DNA of 64,000 bases from a phage, in sequence record NC_100372.1; one strand, given 5' to 3'. Within the stretch, counting starts at the first letter, position 1, and each line of letters starts with the position of its first letter. The notes below the pieces were generated by a model. It did not search any database. It saw nothing but the letters and a program-made list of their open reading frames with translations, and was not told the origin of the DNA. A program made the translations under genes and the position numbers. Shown here piece by piece: positions 317-53,821 of the stretch.

Positions 317-667
317 CTAACCAGTTGTTGACATTCGAATAACTTCTTCTGGTGGCAAAACTTTGGAAAATGTGCATCTTTTACCTCTCCCTTGTGTGGA
401 TATTTCAACCACTCCTGCACATTCTAAAGTTTTAACGCACGCTGCTGCTTTTGTTTTCTTTATCCCAACATCTGCTGCAATTTTCCTTGTGCTGGGTGTG
501 AAGCGTAAATTTTCTCCAAGCTTATACCAGTTGTGCAGGTAGCAGTATACGATCTTGTCATATAAGTCAAGAACAACAACCTCCCCAGTTGTGTCATTCA
601 AAACTTTTGACATAGACAGTATTTCAAGGGGGACTTTAAGATATAGCAGCTTATCCCCATCTTTCAT
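317..667 (-). CDS. Small putative winged-helix DNA-binding protein
   Basis: 116-aa ORF; helix-turn-helix-like segment STRKIAADVGIKKTKAAACVKTLE; last gene of the minus-strand operon; true start may be internal. Confidence 0.4.
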   Translation of the reverse strand: MKDGDKLLYLKVPLEILSMSKVLNDTTGEVVVLDLYDKIVYCYLHNWYKLGENLRFTPSTRKIAADVGIKKTKAAACVKTLECAGVVEISTQGRGKRCTFSKVLPPEEVIRMSTTG

Positions 668-714
668 ATCTCCTGATTCTCCTTGTGTGGCAATTTTCTT
701 TAAAATAGCAGGGA

Positions 715-1269
715 TTACTCCCCGCTGTCAATAGCAAGACTCATTGCAATACGGTATGCCTCTTCTAATGGTAAGAGTCTCCCCCACACATCCCAACCGA
801 CATCAAACTGCCTGCCAAACAACTGCTGTGTGGTTCCGTGAGCATGACCGAACAGTTGGACTGATCCGTGAGGCTTTCTGTTCCACTTTGCAAACTGGTA
901 ATGGCTCATACAGATCAAATTCTTGTTGTGGCGAAGCTCGTAATAATCTACAACCTCATGACCGAACTCTTTCATAATTCTGACAGTCGTCCTTGTGTCA
1001 TGGTTACCACGAACAAGAATAATATGTCCGTTCAACATATTTAGAACATCTGGAAGCAATTTGTTGATATTCTTATCATTAGTGCACGCAATATCCCCCA
1101 AGTGAAACACAGTGTCTGCAGGTGACACAACAGAGTTCCACTTGGTGATGATTCCCGCATTCATACTGTCAAGATTGTGATCATACTGAGATCTGTGTTT
1201 TTGACATGAGTCGAACTCCATTACCCGCTGGTGGAGAAAGTGTGTGTCGCTTGTTACAAAGTATTTCAT
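715..1269 (-). CDS. Calcineurin-like metallophosphoesterase
   Basis: Motifs in order DTHF (DxH), GDIACTND (GDxxD), GNHD, GHAH. Start trimmed to the Met of MKYFVTSDTHF because the longest ORF overlaps the upstream gene. Confidence 0.7.
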   Translation of the reverse strand: MKYFVTSDTHFLHQRVMEFDSCQKHRSQYDHNLDSMNAGIITKWNSVVSPADTVFHLGDIACTNDKNINKLLPDVLNMLNGHIILVRGNHDTRTTVRIMKEFGHEVVDYYELRHNKNLICMSHYQFAKWNRKPHGSVQLFGHAHGTTQQLFGRQFDVGWDVWGRLLPLEEAYRIAMSLAIDSGE

Positions 1270-1276
1270 ACATTCC

Positions 1277-1687
1277 TCATTTAAGTTTAATGCAGTTTTT
1301 AAGCTGGCGTTCCATACGATCCACAACCCTGTCTGGAACATCATGAATGCTTTTATTACCATGGCGGTTTTCAACCACGATCACGGTATAACTATATCCA
1401 TGACTGATCGCCATGTCAATATATTCTTGCACATATTTTTCTTTTGTAAACGTATTACTTACCACGATACGGTCGTAGCCCATACGCATCATATCTTCTA
1501 CGTTATCTTTGCACCATTTTGCTGCAAGTGTTACTTTACTTGCATCCCAATTGTAATTGCCGTCATCGTCGTACCAGAACATATCGTTCTCAAAATGTGG
1601 ATACAGACCTTCTAAAGATAGCGCATTTGCCAGTGTTGATTTGCCAGACCCTGGTAGACCACGCACGATATATAGCATTTTAGACAT
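1277..1687 (-). CDS. P-loop kinase, polynucleotide 5'-kinase-like
   Basis: Walker A GLPGSGKST at the N-terminus, plus VVSNTFTKEK and VPDRVVDRM segments resembling the T4 Pnk kinase domain as recalled. Start taken at MSKMLYIVRG with a GGAGAG RBS. Confidence 0.55.
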   Translation of the reverse strand: MSKMLYIVRGLPGSGKSTLANALSLEGLYPHFENDMFWYDDDGNYNWDASKVTLAAKWCKDNVEDMMRMGYDRIVVSNTFTKEKYVQEYIDMAISHGYSYTVIVVENRHGNKSIHDVPDRVVDRMERQLKNCIKLK

Positions 1688-1708
1688 AGTAACTCTCCGT
1701 TTTAATTT

Positions 1709-1777
1709 TAATGATAGTATACCTAACTGTTTTGTTAATTTCAAGTGTTGACACCAAGTTATTTGTGTGGCAGGATA
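1709..1777. promoter_or_regulatory. Divergent promoter region between the minus operon and the plus block
   Basis: Minus strand: TTGAAA, 17-nt spacer, TATACT (plus coordinates 1716-1743). Plus strand: TTGACA at 1748-1753 with a weak -10. Confidence 0.35.
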
Positions 1778-1787
1778 AAGGGACAAA

Positions 1788-2723
1788 ATGACAAATGAGG
1801 AATGTATAATGAAGTATTTTAATGCAGACAACCTAGTTGACAAAGGTCTTGTAACCAGCAGATATTACCCGGATCTTGGGTTAAAGATCTATAAATATGC
1901 CAGAAAAGTATTCTACAACAATTTATGGCATTTGTCTCCTCGTTTGCTGGAGTGCCGAGGCATTGTTGTCGGTAATGAAGGAAATGTTGTGGCATGGCCC
2001 TTCACAAAAGTGTTTAACTTGGGAGAAAATTCCACCAACCTGCCTGACAATAAACTTGTGACGGCGGTAGAGAAAAAGAACGGATTCCTTGGTGTGGTAT
2101 CATCTCATAAAGGTGAACTATTGTTCTCAACAACCGGGTCTCTTGATTCTCCATATTGTAACCTCGCAAAGGAAACAATCCAGGAGCAATGTGGTAATTT
2201 AGATCTTATCAAGAGGGTTATGGGCCATGAAAACATGACATTCATGTTTGAAATTTGTCACCCTTCAGATCCGCATATTGTTCAGGAAGATCATGGCGCA
2301 TATTTGATAGGTTGCAGATATAATGATTCTGGAATAATGCTACCAGAAGCAGCTTTAGATGGGATTGCCAAATACCTTGGTGCAAAACGTCCTCACACTG
2401 TGCGTGAAATTCCGTTCAGCTATGCAAAAGAATTAGCTGCAGAAACAAGAGGTGAAGGGTATATGATTCGTAAGCCTTACTACCCTTATGATCTGCAGCT
2501 GAAGATCAAGTCTCCATACTATTTGGCACGGAAGGCCGTAATGAGGGGTAAAGCTTGGAAGATTTGGGATGATGATATCTTTAAACGTGTTGACGAAGAG
2601 TTTTACGGCATGGTAAACTTCATTCGTAGAAACTACACAGAAGATGTGTGGAATTGCCTCCTGGAGCAGGAACGACGTGAGATACTTGACTGCTATTTCC
2701 ACAACGAGGACTATATGCAATGA
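1788..2723 (+). CDS. ATP-dependent nucleic acid ligase (covalent nucleotidyltransferase), RNA ligase-like
   Basis: Motif I-like EKKNGF (Kx[DN]G), motif IV-like GEGYMIRKP, motif V-like LKIKSPYY; 311 aa; divergent from the kinase/phosphoesterase pair. Confidence 0.5.
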   Translation: MTNEECIMKYFNADNLVDKGLVTSRYYPDLGLKIYKYARKVFYNNLWHLSPRLLECRGIVVGNEGNVVAWPFTKVFNLGENSTNLPDNKLVTAVEKKNGFLGVVSSHKGELLFSTTGSLDSPYCNLAKETIQEQCGNLDLIKRVMGHENMTFMFEICHPSDPHIVQEDHGAYLIGCRYNDSGIMLPEAALDGIAKYLGAKRPHTVREIPFSYAKELAAETRGEGYMIRKPYYPYDLQLKIKSPYYLARKAVMRGKAWKIWDDDIFKRVDEEFYGMVNFIRRNYTEDVWNCLLEQERREILDCYFHNEDYMQ

Positions 2724-3070
2724 AGAAGTTGATTGTGTGGCTGGATGACTTGAGAGATCCGTCAAATTATGGGCTCCCAGATGCTCTTTGGCTAAAGAAT
2801 TCCTCTGAGTTTATGGATTTTATTAACGATAAGGGAAAGCTCTACAGGCGCGTTTCTGAGTGGCACATGGACAACGACCTTGGAGAGGTATTTGAAGGGT
2901 ACGATTGCCTATCTATGCTGGAGGAAAAATTTGTATTTGGTAAGCCTCCTGTAGTTGACAACGTGAAGATTTTCGTGCATACTTCTAACCCATCAGCTGC
3001 TCGTAAATTCATGCTTGCTGCTGACTCGTTTAAAAAGTTTGGAATAGAGATTAAACAAAACATCTACTGA
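2720..3070 (+). CDS. Hypothetical protein
   Basis: 116-aa ORF overlapping the upstream stop (ATGA-type coupling), same strand as neighbours. Confidence 0.4.
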   Translation: MKKLIVWLDDLRDPSNYGLPDALWLKNSSEFMDFINDKGKLYRRVSEWHMDNDLGEVFEGYDCLSMLEEKFVFGKPPVVDNVKIFVHTSNPSAARKFMLAADSFKKFGIEIKQNIY

Positions 3071-3078
3071 GGACACTT

Positions 3079-3840
3079 ATGCGACGACTGATCATTATCT
3101 CCGGTGCTGGTTTGAGCGCTGAATCTGGTATCCCAACTTTCCGATCTGGTGGCACTGCAATGTGGGAGAATTTCAGCATCGATGAGGTGTGTAACATCCA
3201 CACCTTTGCCAAGAACTATTATAAGGTTCATGACTTTTACAATGCACGGCGTGTAGCTCTGGGCAGTGTTGATCCTAACCTTGCACATCTCCGGATCGCT
3301 GAATGGTATTCCCGCTGGTCTGGTCGCGTGATCAACCTGACAACCAATGTAGATGATTTGCTGGAGCGTGCTGGTGTAAAACATGAAGATATTTTACATG
3401 TCCACGGATATTTGCCAGAAATAGTCTACGAGGATGATGAAGGGAGTAACGTCATTAAAGACATTGGATACTCTGAGGTAGATGCAAGCAAGTATACTTG
3501 GGTTAAGCCTAATGTCGTGTTCTTCGGAGAAGTAGCTCCAAAGTATACAGACATGTATGACCTGTTGACTTCTCTGACGAGCAATGATATGGTTATCCTT
3601 GTAGGGTGCTCCAACACAGTTATCAATTTTAACTGGGAGCTATTCCCTGCCTGTAATAAGGGGACCAAACTGCTGATCGTTAACAAATACGACTCACAGC
3701 ATTTAGGGGAGAATGGCATTTCACGTAGTGACATTTACCAGTATGAGGATCGCGGCATCCCAGTTTGGTTTAACGGGGCTGTTGACGCTTTCTCTGATAA
3801 AACATTCATTGACATCGTAGAAAACTTTATGGAACTGTAA
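3079..3840 (+). CDS. Sir2-family NAD-dependent deacylase / ADP-ribosyltransferase-like protein
   Basis: Canonical sirtuin N-terminal motif GAGLSAESGIPTFR; 253 aa. Confidence 0.85.
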   Translation: MRRLIIISGAGLSAESGIPTFRSGGTAMWENFSIDEVCNIHTFAKNYYKVHDFYNARRVALGSVDPNLAHLRIAEWYSRWSGRVINLTTNVDDLLERAGVKHEDILHVHGYLPEIVYEDDEGSNVIKDIGYSEVDASKYTWVKPNVVFFGEVAPKYTDMYDLLTSLTSNDMVILVGCSNTVINFNWELFPACNKGTKLLIVNKYDSQHLGENGISRSDIYQYEDRGIPVWFNGAVDAFSDKTFIDIVENFMEL

Positions 3841-3854
3841 GCGGAGGCCTTTTA

Positions 3855-4568
3855 ATGCTGAATACTAAACTGATTGACAACTTGGAAAAACTGTCTCAGC
3901 CTGAAAACTACCTTTGGTCTGCCAACTGGGTGGAAAATTGGAACCGTGTAGCAGCTAAAGTGAAAAAATCATACACACCATTCGAACTTCAGCTGAGTTT
4001 CATTGAGGAAGAGTTCAATGAAGTTTTGGAAGAGTTGGAGAAAGGTGATGGTGGGGATCATCTCCTAAAAGAGGCCTGCGATCTTCACGTTGTCACAAGT
4101 TATGCCGCTTATCTTGTTAACGATAACCATGAAAAGTGGTCAAACCTGTTTGATAATCCGCGAGGTCTTAAGTTTAAGATCGGTGAATTTTATGATACAC
4201 TGATCGCTGCGAAAAATACCTCTAAGCAAAGAGCGTCTGCTTACCGCTTAGCAGAGTTGTCGACAGCTTTGCTGTTCCAGCTTCGCGGTGATGTGTGCGG
4301 GATGATGCGGAAGGTTCTAAAATCTAATGACAGCAAGTTTGCACGCGTCAACCATCTGCGGTATTCACACGGTGCCAGTGCAGATATGCCTGCTGAACAA
4401 CTTATCGAGTTGGAGATTAAAGATCTTGAGCGACGCTTTGATGGTCGCTATGAAGGTTTTGTTGCTAAAGAAGAATTCTACAACGGAAATAAAGTTATCA
4501 TATTCCTCGACAGTAAAGGTAAGATTATGAAGCCTTCAAGCTTCAAGGATGTAACAGAATATATTTAA
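3855..4568 (+). CDS. Hypothetical protein, possible MazG-like nucleotide pyrophosphohydrolase fold
   Basis: Acidic helical segment IEEEFNEVLEELEKGDGGDHLLKEACDL resembles the MazG/HisE EExxE...D metal-binding pattern; weak. Confidence 0.4.
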   Translation: MLNTKLIDNLEKLSQPENYLWSANWVENWNRVAAKVKKSYTPFELQLSFIEEEFNEVLEELEKGDGGDHLLKEACDLHVVTSYAAYLVNDNHEKWSNLFDNPRGLKFKIGEFYDTLIAAKNTSKQRASAYRLAELSTALLFQLRGDVCGMMRKVLKSNDSKFARVNHLRYSHGASADMPAEQLIELEIKDLERRFDGRYEGFVAKEEFYNGNKVIIFLDSKGKIMKPSSFKDVTEYI

Positions 4569-4574
4569 TAACAT

Positions 4575-4603
4575 AGCCGGGGCGATCCCGGCTTTACTTG
4601 TTT
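4575..4603 (+). terminator. Candidate intrinsic terminator
   Basis: Stem agccggg / cccggct with loop gcgat, followed by ttacttgttt, just after the stop at 4566-4568. Confidence 0.5.
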
Positions 4604-4632
4604 AGGAAAGTATGCAAGTGAGGTAGAAAGTT

Positions 4633-4941
4633 ATGTACAAGCACTCCAGAGATCTTGAAAACGATGCTGTGTTTGGGGATCAGATGAAAGAATTGGTTAA
4701 ACTTATAGGTAGGATAGAGGATAAGTTTGACACTAAGATCTACATCGACAGCAAAGTATTCAACCACAAAATATGGACAAATCTGTGTGTTGGACTGCAT
4801 GGAGATAAAGATGTGGTAAATTTAGTTGTAATTAAGTTCATAGTGTGGCAGAATAAAACTATAAATTATTACGATCCGCACCTGCTTGTTTACCCGATAA
4901 AAGACCTATTAGAGAAGGAGGACTGCAATGCTGTTATTTAA
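4633..4941 (+). CDS. Hypothetical protein
   Basis: 102-aa ORF in the plus-strand block. Confidence 0.35.
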   Translation: MYKHSRDLENDAVFGDQMKELVKLIGRIEDKFDTKIYIDSKVFNHKIWTNLCVGLHGDKDVVNLVVIKFIVWQNKTINYYDPHLLVYPIKDLLEKEDCNAVI

Positions 4942-5197
4942 TCTTGCTAAACCTGTAGAAGCACACCAGTTTGACGGAAGCTCTTCATCAGTATCTGATC
5001 TGCAACGGTGGATTGATACAGGTGTGTTTACACCGTCACCTGTTCGGACCAGAGATATTCTTCGCATGTGTGAGCTTGTCGAGCCGTTTGGTAACCTGGT
5101 CTTGTACCAAGGGGATTGGTTAGTTGACTTTATGGGAGACTGGTTGGTAATGAGCAAAGAAGAGATGTTTAAAATTTTTAAGGAAGAGGCTGAGTAA
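4928..5197 (+). CDS. Hypothetical protein
   Basis: 89-aa ORF, overlaps neighbours by a few nt. Confidence 0.35.
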   Translation: MLLFNLAKPVEAHQFDGSSSSVSDLQRWIDTGVFTPSPVRTRDILRMCELVEPFGNLVLYQGDWLVDFMGDWLVMSKEEMFKIFKEEAE

Positions 5198-6480
5198 TGC
5201 ATCAGATCAAAACAACACTGTACGCACTGAACAAAGATGGCAGCTACCAACAGTGGAAAGTATTCACGGATGGTGATAAGGTTATTGTAGAGTTTGGCAA
5301 GCTTGATGGTAAACTGCAATACAAAGAGACGATCTGCACACCTAAGAACGTGGGTCGTGCCAATGAAACTACAGCTGAGCAACAGGCTGAGCTGGAAGCG
5401 ATCAGTAAGTGGGAAAAACAAGTCCGTCTGGGGTATGTTGAAAATATGGAAGATTGCGAGCAGGGTGTTGACCTTTTACCCATGCTGGTGCATGACTACC
5501 TGAAGCGTGGAAAGGCACTTAAATTACCTTGCTGGATCTTGCGTAAGTTAGATGGCCTTCGTCTACTGGTTGTTTTCCAAAACGGTGAGCCTAAATTTAT
5601 TTCCCGTGGTAATAAGTCCTACCCTATTCAAGGAAAGCTTCTGGAGCAACTTCGTTCTTTCCACTTCACCACCGGGATTAAACAGCTCGACGGAGAGATC
5701 TATATTCATGGTCTGCCTCTGCAGAAAATAGTGTCTCTTGCTAAACGTTGGCGCACACAGGAAGAGATTCAGGCCGAGATCGATAAAGACTACGAGGCAG
5801 ATAAAAAACGCCGTCATGCCGCAATTAAGGCAGGCTTATCAACATACAAAAACTTCAATAAGGTAGATATTCCTGTTGATGTTGAGCCTGTTCGTGATGA
5901 TTTGCGTTACGGAGGGTACTGTAGCTATGACTTAGAGTATCATATTTTCGACATCCCTAGTGACAAGGTATGGTGGGATCCGGAAACAGAATCTGGACGA
6001 TGCAAGGATCTTATGGATGCAGAAGATACCATTACCACTCTGATGCTTGACCATATCAAGGTTGTTGACGCAGAGCTTGCGTACACAGTTGATCATTGCG
6101 AAGAATCTGTTGGTGTATTCATGTCCGAAGGATATGAAGGTACTATCATGCGTAACTTCTGTGGTAAATACGAATACGGTCAGCGAACATCTGAAGCATT
6201 GAAATGGAAAAAGTTCAACGATGCTGAGGTGAAAGTTATTGACGTTGAGAAAGATAAGAATGATGAAGGTGTTCTTATCTGTGTTGACAAGGAAGGTATC
6301 GTTGTTAAAATGAAGATGAAAGGTACGCACGAGGAGCGTAGCTATGACAGGATGCAGGAAATGATCGGCAAGTTTGTCACCTTCAAATATCAAGCAAGGA
6401 CAGAAGACAACAACTACCAATTCCCTGTCGGCATCTGCGTCCGAAATGTTAACCCAGACACTTGGGAGGTTCTGGAATGA
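5197..6480 (+). CDS. ATP-dependent DNA ligase
   Basis: Motif I KLDGLR (KxDGxR) in ILRKLDGLRLLVV; 427 aa. Confidence 0.7.
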   Translation: MHQIKTTLYALNKDGSYQQWKVFTDGDKVIVEFGKLDGKLQYKETICTPKNVGRANETTAEQQAELEAISKWEKQVRLGYVENMEDCEQGVDLLPMLVHDYLKRGKALKLPCWILRKLDGLRLLVVFQNGEPKFISRGNKSYPIQGKLLEQLRSFHFTTGIKQLDGEIYIHGLPLQKIVSLAKRWRTQEEIQAEIDKDYEADKKRRHAAIKAGLSTYKNFNKVDIPVDVEPVRDDLRYGGYCSYDLEYHIFDIPSDKVWWDPETESGRCKDLMDAEDTITTLMLDHIKVVDAELAYTVDHCEESVGVFMSEGYEGTIMRNFCGKYEYGQRTSEALKWKKFNDAEVKVIDVEKDKNDEGVLICVDKEGIVVKMKMKGTHEERSYDRMQEMIGKFVTFKYQARTEDNNYQFPVGICVRNVNPDTWEVLE

Positions 6481-53281: not shown

Positions 53282-53821
53282 TCAACACTCTTTGTACTCC
53301 ACCACGATAATATCTATATCAAAAGTGGCAAGGTTAATAATGTCCTCTACATGTTCCCACTTCAAACCGCCTATGCCGCACCCGATCTTAGGGATGTAGA
53401 ATGGTAAAATCGACCCCTCAAATACTTCATTGACTCGCTCAAAGCCTTTCAGTATTGAGAAATATTCAGCATTAGGCCCTGGGTAGAACTGAGTATACAG
53501 ATTTATTCCGTAGACAATACCTCTCGGAGATAAGTGCTCCCAGCGGGAGAACGCGCCCAGTTTACTTAGGCAACCGTGCATAGTCATTTTATCAGCTTCC
53601 AATGCTTGAGGGAACTCACGGGCAATCTGTTTTGCTACACCCTTACCCATTGTGTGGAAGCAGTTACAACCGTGGATCAGGTGACCATCACCGCTCTTAA
53701 AAAGGGAGATTAAATCTCCCTCTACAGTATCAATAATCACGATATTCCAGCTCCTCTTCCACAATTTCAAAAAACTCAGTCCAGCACTGTGGCATATTGG
53801 AGTTACCGAAGTGGCTTTCAT
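53282..53821 (-). CDS. Putative macro-domain (ADP-ribose binding/processing) protein
   Basis: VIIDTVEGDLISL, IHGCNCFHTMGKGVAKQIAREF and PKIGCGIGGL resemble the macro-domain GDIT...NAAN...GGGV...G-rich loop pattern; start uncertain (overlaps the upstream ORF). Confidence 0.45.
   Translation of the reverse strand: MKATSVTPICHSAGLSFLKLWKRSWNIVIIDTVEGDLISLFKSGDGHLIHGCNCFHTMGKGVAKQIAREFPQALEADKMTMHGCLSKLGAFSRWEHLSPRGIVYGINLYTQFYPGPNAEYFSILKGFERVNEVFEGSILPFYIPKIGCGIGGLKWEHVEDIINLATFDIDIIVVEYKEC

Follow-up and report, generated by a model that had tools for sequence, protein, structure and literature searches.

A 64,000-nucleotide (nt) stretch of phage DNA (NC_100372.1; hereafter the window) carries near its first letter a cassette that probably encodes an RNA healing-and-sealing system for breaks that end in a 2',3'-cyclic phosphate and a 5'-OH, T4-like in design with the parts placed in separate genes. 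The window derives from an rV5-like Vequintavirus (at least 97% identity to rV5-type genomes), and the core of the cassette consists of a metallophosphoesterase, a small P-loop kinase and an RNA ligase. The three open reading frames (ORFs) on which a preliminary description of this DNA was built are real, lie where it placed them on both strands, and each matches Pfam above the gathering score. That description limited the system to 715-2723 and presented it as new. The cassette is in fact six genes, a minus-strand pair of kinase and phosphoesterase and a plus-strand run of ligase, cREC (cyclic-phosphate-processing receiver-like), sirtuin (Sir2) and MazG-like genes that extends to a likely terminator at 4575-4593 (Table 1). 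Moreover, the same locus was described by Iyer, Burroughs, Anantharaman & Aravind in 2022 (PMC9503650, section 3.7.3) as the 'type 2' sirtuin-linked phage RNA-repair neighbourhood, with Escherichia phage V5 and Proteus phage Mydo as prototypes. What we report is thus a correct rediscovery of a published prediction and not a new system; the earlier reading was largely right and incomplete in extent, and the analysis of constant partners and of gene fusions is what is added here.

The ligase scores 55.3 bits against PF09511 RNA_lig_T4_1 (gathering score 28.3) and matches phrog_562 at 7e-66. Single-sequence searches of the PDB gave nothing useful for the ligase or for the kinase, and profiles of seven phage homologues were used instead. 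The ligase-family profile, built without T4 sequences, found T4 Rnl1 (E = 1e-15) and the ligase domains of fungal Trl1 (4e-3), and in this PDB search it matched no DNA ligase. With the AlphaFold2 model of the protein (predicted local distance difference test score, pLDDT, of 93), Foldseek placed Trl1-LIG and T4 Rnl1 on top (E ∼1e-11), followed by archaeal Rnl3, the Naegleria RNA ligase and T4 Rnl2; the first DNA ligase, that of African swine fever virus, came at E ∼3e-5 and other DNA ligases at 1e-3 or worse. As far as computation goes, profile and model support an RNA ligase of the Rnl1/Trl1 clade, and not the DNA-ligase paralogue whose discovery would have undone the preliminary description.

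The catalytic residues point the same way. The ligase has K96-K-N-G99 (motif I), E155 (motif III), E223-G224 (motif IV) and K239-I-K241 (motif V), all invariant in an alignment of 10 sequences including T4-type Rnl1 and in 65 homologues. Two of the signatures reported earlier, Kx(N)G and KxK, are therefore present, while the third, given as 'EGxxxK', really reads EGYMIRK. Alignment to a T4-type Rnl1 with checked numbering equates R54, K75, F77, K99, G102, E159, E227, G228, K240 and K242 of T4 Rnl1 with R57, K74, F76, K96, G99, E155, E223, G224, K239 and K241 of the window ligase, so that 10 of 11 key positions are identical; overall identity to T4 Rnl1 is 20-27%. We considered the protein as a T4 Rnl1 orthologue and ruled this out by its score against TIGR02308, the T4 RnlA equivalog model (39 bits, cutoff 242), and by its unalignable C-terminus.

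The kinase matches PF13671 AAA_33 with 41.1 bits (cutoff 27). The profile of its phage family matches T4 Pnk along its full length at 4e-6, Capnocytophaga Pnkp1 at 2e-5 and the kinase domain of Clostridium thermocellum Pnkp (CthPnkp) at 0.02. The P-loop residues G10, G13, G15, K16 and S17, together with D35 (the position of T4 D35 and Cth D38), are conserved in alignments of 10 and 59 sequences. By profile and by fold the nearest relatives are T4 Pnk and bacterial Pnkp kinases; a deoxynucleoside monophosphate or thymidylate kinase, which the preliminary description had named as the outcome fatal to its proposal, is not what these comparisons indicate, within the reach of computation.

The phosphoesterase scores above the gathering threshold for PF12850/PF00149 (Metallophos_2/Metallophos). 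All six motifs of the binuclear metal site (D8xH10, G58D59, G88N89H90, H123, G141H142 and H144) are invariant in seven phage genera. Its nearest solved relative, by profile against the PDB, is Aquifex aq_1665 (1XM7; E = 6e-19), followed by weak matches to GpdQ and Rv0805. We rejected an assignment as PdeM, the ligase-associated DNA-damage phosphoesterase, since the score of 20.6 bits (E 2.4e-4) lies far below the cutoff of 150. That the enzyme would act on RNA ends is inferred from its context, namely the linkage and module swapping described below.

The three genes keep close company in phages that differ much from the source of the window. The stretch 500-3100 recurs at 90% identity or more, over at least 80% of its length, in 117 phage records, nearly all of them rV5-type E. 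coli myophages (Vequintavirus, ∼137 kb). Ligase homologues were found in 815 phage records and kinase homologues in 662, and the whole trio lies within 3 kb, in differing gene orders, in rV5-like phages, Mydo, phAPEC8-like alia, the Pseudomonas phages PAK_P4 and REC (Pakpunavirus, Otagovirus), Vibrio phage Bennett (Thalassavirus) and Acinetobacter phage D22 (Saclayvirus). A scan of IMG/VR with the ligase profile returned 52 loci (30-88% identity) that were not dereplicated, so the counts refer to loci and not to independent lineages. Within 3 kb of the ligase the kinase is present in 47 of them, the phosphoesterase also in 47 and both in 43, compared with a sirtuin in 10 and cREC in 9. Kinase and phosphoesterase, and not the sirtuin, are the near-constant partners of the ligase. 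Because the arrangement is preserved in 117 records at 90% identity or more and the linkage holds in distant phages despite rearrangement, it is not a matter of chance.

These data bear directly on the simplest alternative, in which there is no functional unit: the genes would be unrelated early or nucleotide-metabolism neighbours, and the ligase would serve mainly in tail-fibre attachment, as the 'gp63' label from T4 implies. Unrelated metabolism genes are indeed found in the region, and many GenBank records title the ligase 'RNA ligase and tail fiber attachment catalyst'. However, this label was carried over from T4 by name only, and a purely structural role would not need catalytic residues that are all invariant. 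The linkage outlasts repeated rearrangement in at least seven phage genera and in the 43 metagenomic loci with the full trio, and gene fusions link the same subfamilies. We therefore regard the absence of a functional unit as very improbable.

The fusions come from a survey of the kinase family, which comprises 2181 cluster representatives (clusters at 50% identity, E ≤1e-10); multi-domain members were inspected among the 150 closest to the window kinase. In this set the same subfamilies of kinase and ligase are fused in both orders, ligase-kinase (P0062) and kinase-ligase (P0147), four proteins join the kinase to an HD phosphohydrolase (P0023, P0053, P0082, P0119), and one joins it to HAD_PNKP, the phosphatase domain of T4 Pnk (P0136). 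Staphylococcus phage PT94 encodes a 754-amino-acid (aa) protein with AAA_33, Metallophos and RNA_lig_T4_1 in this order; its Metallophos domain belongs to another subfamily and does not match the profile of the window phosphoesterase. Among 389 collected proteins, none joined the kinase to a phosphoesterase of the subfamily present in the window. The two are neighbours again in freshwater metagenome phage contigs found via the kinase (L063-L066), where the gene directly after the kinase encodes a same-subfamily phosphoesterase (profile match at E = 1e-39) and the ligase 2.4 kb downstream is an unrelated PF09414/PHA02142 protein of Rnl2 type. In Streptomyces phages, an Rnl1-type ligase is paired with a T4-style kinase-HAD Pnk. 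The kinase is thus joined to three kinds of phosphoesterase (HAD, HD and metallophosphoesterase) and two kinds of ligase. Since the same pair occurs with a PF09414 ligase in the freshwater phages, kinase and phosphoesterase appear to form a portable end-healing module with interchangeable sealing enzymes.

Some of these loci hold further genes. NUDIX, DUF192 and SET-domain genes are also nearby in the freshwater contigs. Vibrio phage Bennett has, besides the aq_1665-type protein, a second and different Metallophos protein, gp170 (249 aa; locus L005, 5184-5933), directly upstream of the ligase, and in Acinetobacter phage D22 a second gene with an RNA ligase annotation lies 4 kb downstream (locus L006, 11107-12210). 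Because of these extra genes, some lineages seem to carry duplicated or alternative healing and sealing parts.

RNases that need no metal ion, such as PrrC- and RloC-type anticodon nucleases, HEPN toxins or colicins, produce ends with a 2',3'-cyclic phosphate and a 5'-OH. In the proposed scheme such breaks would be made by RNases of the host or of a competitor, in tRNAs or in other RNAs that end up with cyclic phosphates. The metallophosphoesterase would open and remove the cyclic phosphate to leave a 3'-OH, in the manner of the Mn-dependent phosphatase module of bacterial Pnkp. The small kinase would phosphorylate the 5'-OH, and the Rnl1-type ligase would adenylate the resulting 5'-phosphate via Lys96 and reseal the break, for which the anticodon loop of a tRNA is the most probable site. 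By analogy with T4, the cassette may then serve as counter-defence against anticodon nucleases.

The nearest precedent is T4 itself, whose Pnk and Rnl1 repair PrrC-cut tRNA-Lys (Amitsur et al. 1987, cited in PMC12409363). The logic is shared: the window ligase is of the Rnl1 clade, the window kinase is nearest to the kinase domain of T4 Pnk, and the genes adjoin in T4-type phages too. In contrast to T4 Pnk, the kinase lacks a fused HAD 3'-phosphatase and a separate metallophosphoesterase gene is present instead, and the ligase differs from T4 Rnl1 in lacking K119 and the long C-terminal domain. A 2025 paper on a Pakpunavirus (Adele) likewise noted that kinase and ligases could restore a cut tRNA and that the kinase has no 3'-phosphatase domain. 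The idea, put forward in the preliminary description, that the phosphoesterase takes the place of T4 Pnk's HAD phosphatase gains support from the module swapping seen in the kinase relatives (HAD_PNKP and HD fusions, PT94, the freshwater pairs).

Bacterial Pnkp systems (Clostridium thermocellum Pnkp/Hen1; Capnocytophaga Pnkp1-Rnl-Hen1) offer a second comparison. They combine a P-loop 5'-kinase with a binuclear metallophosphoesterase and with a ligase of the adenylyltransferase kind, the set of activities predicted here, and the window kinase matches CthPnk and Pnkp1 in both profile and fold. The cassette differs from them in having three separate genes on two strands, an aq_1665-type phosphoesterase and an Rnl1-type ligase. 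No Hen1 methyltransferase is found among the genes of 317-6480, the interval screened, which encode a helix-turn-helix protein, the phosphoesterase, kinase, ligase, cREC, Sir2 and MazG-like proteins, two small ORFs and a DNA ligase. The parallel with Pnkp drawn in the preliminary description consequently holds for the phosphoesterase at the level of superfamily and of logic, and fails at the level of subfamily. HD-Pnk enzymes of the Runella slithyformis type, which reportedly heal ends as well, show the same architecture as those kinase relatives (42-46% identical) that carry a fused HD phosphohydrolase; the window kinase, on the other hand, stands alone and its partner is a metallophosphoesterase and not an HD domain.

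tRNA-cleaving immunity is widespread and includes PrrC, RloC, PARIS, retron-Eco7, Cas13 and Cas12a3. To our knowledge, T4 Pnk with Rnl1 is the only experimentally established repair answer of a phage to it. The cassette is predicted to be a second and much more widespread repair design, in which the enzyme healing the 3' end is a separate metallophosphoesterase. Since it is present in easily grown E. coli phages, among them the BASEL members RudolfGeigy and MaxBurger, the predictions, including the sirtuin idea discussed below, are cheap to test.

Several observations weigh against the healing-and-sealing reading. The T4 Rnl1 position K119, reportedly essential together with R54, K75 and F77 outside the shared motifs, is Thr116 in the window ligase, inside an invariant STTG. 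The C-terminal region of the ligase is only ∼65 aa long, forms four short helices in the model and is much shorter than that of T4 Rnl1; alignments of the two proteins end near residue 247 and none reaches the T4 tRNA-specificity domain. Because the C-terminus is unlike that domain, tRNA specificity is not established. The window holds no tRNA gene. Of 34 loci sampled, only 12 have tRNA genes at a distance of 8 kb or less from the ligase, a figure that has no baseline and to which we give no weight. In the kinase, the positions of T4 R38 and R126, which are said to be the acceptor-binding and lid arginines of T4 Pnk, are taken by Trp38, variable across the family, and Lys112; the T4 R122 position is a conserved Arg108. 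The phosphoesterase profile matched neither lambda phosphatase nor the CthPnkp phosphatase in the PDB up to E = 10, and by sequence the protein belongs to the uncharacterised aq_1665 subfamily and not to the lambda-phosphatase/CthPnkp type. It is also found in ∼1400 phage records versus the 815 with the ligase, and given this wider spread it may have additional roles. Our search of the literature on rV5-like and Pakpunavirus phages found no biochemical or genetic study of the cassette proteins. Finally, a DNA ligase gene lies 2.5 kb downstream in the window and is often nearby in relatives.

The last point is at the heart of a reading in which the kinase and the phosphoesterase clean DNA ends with 5'-OH and 3'-phosphate, for example after attack by a host nuclease, the DNA ligase at 5197-6480 then seals these ends, and a different function falls to the RNA ligase. 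In 19 of the 52 IMG/VR loci a DNA ligase gene is found no more than 3 kb from the RNA ligase, the phosphoesterase does have its weak match to PdeM, and T4 Pnk acts on DNA ends too. A further parallel is the MPE of Pseudomonas putida, a DNA endonuclease from a DNA-repair operon according to PMC7826289. On the other hand, the pair is kept without a nearby DNA ligase in the Vibrio, Acinetobacter and freshwater phages, and every kinase fusion found joins an RNA ligase or an RNA-end-healing phosphoesterase, none a DNA ligase. Because the pair persists without a DNA ligase and the fusions point to RNA enzymes, a DNA-end role becomes less likely, and we put it at a slim chance.

The main rival concerns the accessory genes and was put forward by Iyer et al. 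2022 (PMC9503650), whose component list consists of the sirtuin, a T4-like tRNA ligase, cREC, a nucleotide kinase, MazG and an 'occasional' calcineurin-like phosphoesterase. All six components lie here in one block at 715-4568, in the order of rV5-type records and with components common to Mydo. It would be a eukaryote-like pathway of the Trl1/Tpt1 type driven by nicotinamide adenine dinucleotide (NAD+). In it, cREC or the phosphoesterase would open the cyclic phosphate to a 2'-phosphate and a 3'-OH, the kinase would phosphorylate the 5' end, and the ligase would seal and leave a 2'-phosphate at the junction. The sirtuin, which lacks zinc ligands, would move this phosphate to NAD+ as Tpt1/KptA does, and cREC, Macro and MazG-like proteins would clear the ADP-ribose cyclic-phosphate.

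There is something to be said for such a route. It is in print (PMC9503650); the cREC, Sir2 and MazG-like genes are co-oriented with the ligase and share one terminator with it; and by fold the ligase stands equally near to T4 Rnl1 and to the ligase domains of fungal Trl1. As with Trl1 and Tpt1 in fungi and plants, a kinase, a candidate for processing cyclic phosphate and an NAD-using enzyme, here the sirtuin, stand alongside the ligase. The sirtuin itself (1e-26 to PF02146, NAD-binding motif present) aligns to SIRT5 and CobB with H109 as the catalytic His. Its segment corresponding to the zinc module of protein deacylases is ∼30 aa long versus ∼55 (∼25 shorter) and contains no Cys, and it scores below the cutoff of every NCBIfam deacetylase model. 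Because the zinc cysteines are missing and the deacetylase scores are below cutoff, the sequence suggests a substrate other than acyl-lysine. A Macro gene is present in the window, 50 kb away from the cassette, and judged by sequence its product could process ADP-ribose phosphate by-products; in Pseudomonas phages the cassette is bordered by Poa1p-like Macro genes and by genes of NAD salvage.

Nevertheless, the counts given above (Sir2 in 10 and cREC in 9 of 52 loci, against 47 for each of the constant partners) speak against the NAD+-driven route. Since Sir2 and cREC are absent near the ligase in most loci that keep the trio, an NAD-dependent step must be dispensable for the core. Where a binuclear metallophosphoesterase of Pnkp type takes the phosphate off completely, a 2'-phosphotransferase is not needed, and we know of no sirtuin shown to act on an RNA 2'-phosphate. 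The cassette further differs from Trl1/Tpt1 systems in having neither a 2H cyclic phosphodiesterase nor a Tpt1/KptA homologue, and its components are separate proteins. All in all, we consider the NAD+-driven pathway unlikely. The same holds for its more specific form, to which we would give only a small chance: here the zinc-less sirtuin is an NAD+-dependent RNA 2'-phosphotransferase that replaces Tpt1/KptA and cREC is a metal-independent cyclic phosphodiesterase, so that a fungal-type route would run beside or instead of the phosphoesterase route, with Macro and MazG-like proteins clearing ADP-ribose by-products. The sirtuin may be such an enzyme; the idea is already in print, and our evidence is not strongly supportive. 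While the paper of 2022 is centred on the sirtuin, the ligase-centred count makes sirtuin and cREC lineage-specific extras of the healing-and-sealing system.

The three downstream genes are lineage-specific and probably process cyclic-phosphate or NAD-derived by-products. cREC matches PF20274 cREC_REC at 4.5e-14, a domain defined in a 2021 jumbo-phage paper by the same group as Iyer et al. 2022. Its receiver-like residues D9, D10, D51, D53, T88/S89 and K96 are invariant in three genera. The gene was found with the ligase only in enterobacterial phage lineages (356 phage records, in addition to the IMG/VR loci already mentioned). The MazG-like protein matches phrog_671, 'nucleotide pyrophosphohydrolase', at 5e-22 and has no match in Pfam or NCBIfam; in Mydo-like and phAPEC8-like phages its homologues are encoded 2-6 kb downstream of the ligase gene.

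Genes of NAD+ salvage (nicotinamide phosphoribosyltransferase and a ribose-phosphate pyrophosphokinase-like protein) flank the cassette in unrelated phages, namely PAK_P4 (locus L004, 7322-10833), REC (L007, 7766-12156), Mydo (L002, 527-3074) and Bennett (L005, 9322-12328), and in the Pseudomonas phages the Poa1p-like Macro gene stands beside them. The Macro protein of the window is 35% identical to the one flanking the cassette in PAK_P4. No NadV or Prs homologue was found in the window.

Expression signals fit two divergent units. A gap of 7 nt separates the stop codon of the kinase (1277-1279) from the start codon of the phosphoesterase (1267-1269), and the stop is overlapped by a GAGGA, a layout consistent with co-transcription and with coupled translation. 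From a 100-nt spacer the kinase and ligase genes run in opposite directions. The minus-strand pair, probably co-transcribed and divergent from the ligase, was correctly recognised in the preliminary description. In the spacer, the minus-strand promoter-like sites 1744>1716 and 1738>1711 and the plus-strand TTGACA at 1748-1753 are no more than matches to consensus. The start of the ligase is probably ATG 1809, which is in frame, rather than 1788, because a Shine-Dalgarno sequence GAGGA (1797-1801) lies 7 nt upstream and homologues begin with MKFN there. The start of cREC overlaps the ligase stop (ATGA). The hairpin, terminator-like on both strands and 7 nt past the MazG-like stop codon, likely closes the ligase-cREC-Sir2-MazG unit.

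The 15-nt sequence AAATGAGGAATGTAT occurs at 1268-1282 on the minus strand, in the ribosome-binding region of the phosphoesterase gene, and in an identical copy at 1793-1807 on the plus strand, before the ligase ATG 1809. The copies form an exact inverted repeat and are the only two in the 64 kb, even when two mismatches are allowed. Both phosphoesterase and ligase (from ATG 1809) start with MKYF. The shared sequence may be a relic of recombination or a common site of translational control.

Table 1. Features of the cassette and related genes in the window (activities are predicted)
Feature	Position	Strand	Family match or remark
Metallophosphoesterase, aq_1665/AQ1575 subfamily, 184 aa	715..1269	-	PF12850/PF00149; phrog_547 5e-51; putative 2',3'-cyclic phosphodiesterase / 3'-phosphatase (3'-end healing)
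Minimal P-loop polynucleotide 5'-OH kinase (predicted activity), 136 aa, kinase domain alone, no fused phosphatase	1277..1687	-	PF13671 AAA_33
Divergent control region, kinase/ligase	1688..1808	.	Promoter-like consensus matches
Rnl1/Trl1-clade ATP-dependent RNA ligase (predicted), 311 aa if started at ATG 1788, probably 304 aa with the start at ATG 1809	1788..2723	+	PF09511; phrog_562
cREC (cyclic-phosphate-processing receiver-like) protein, 116 aa	2720..3070	+	PF20274; phrog_1479
Sirtuin (Sir2) family protein without zinc-binding cysteines, 253 aa	3079..3840	+	PF02146; phrog_2162
MazG-like nucleotide pyrophosphohydrolase (predicted), 237 aa, last gene of plus-strand run	3855..4568	+	phrog_671
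G+C-rich hairpin then T-run, likely terminator	4575..4593	.	8 pairs, 6 G-C
ATP-dependent DNA ligase, separate gene	5197-6480		Pfam
Macro-domain protein	53282-53740	-	PF01661, 1.3e-7

In rV5-type GenBank records the three core genes go under the names phosphoesterase, ATPase or '3'-phosphatase, 5'-polynucleotide kinase', and RNA ligase, and at least one record already gives the gene after the ligase the name 'cyclic-phosphate processing receiver domain-containing protein'. A tRNA scan of the window found no tRNA genes. In rV5-type relatives a tRNA cluster (Met, Tyr, Arg and others) is located ∼3-5 kb beyond the position of the left end of the window (locus L001, 2559-3280; L011, 11-832), and shares the strand of the kinase-phosphoesterase pair. 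The GC skew of the window is negative up to ∼2 kb, positive until ∼38 kb and then negative again; its sign change near 2 kb falls where the coding strand also changes, at the kinase/ligase divergence. It should also be noted that ∼18-23 records (MG0656xx, e.g. MG065658, MG065666 and MG065676) are titled 'Campylobacter phage' with Campylobacter jejuni as host, and their proteins are 96-100% identical to those of the coliphage rV5-type cassette; these titles likely reflect mislabelling or carry-over of coliphage.

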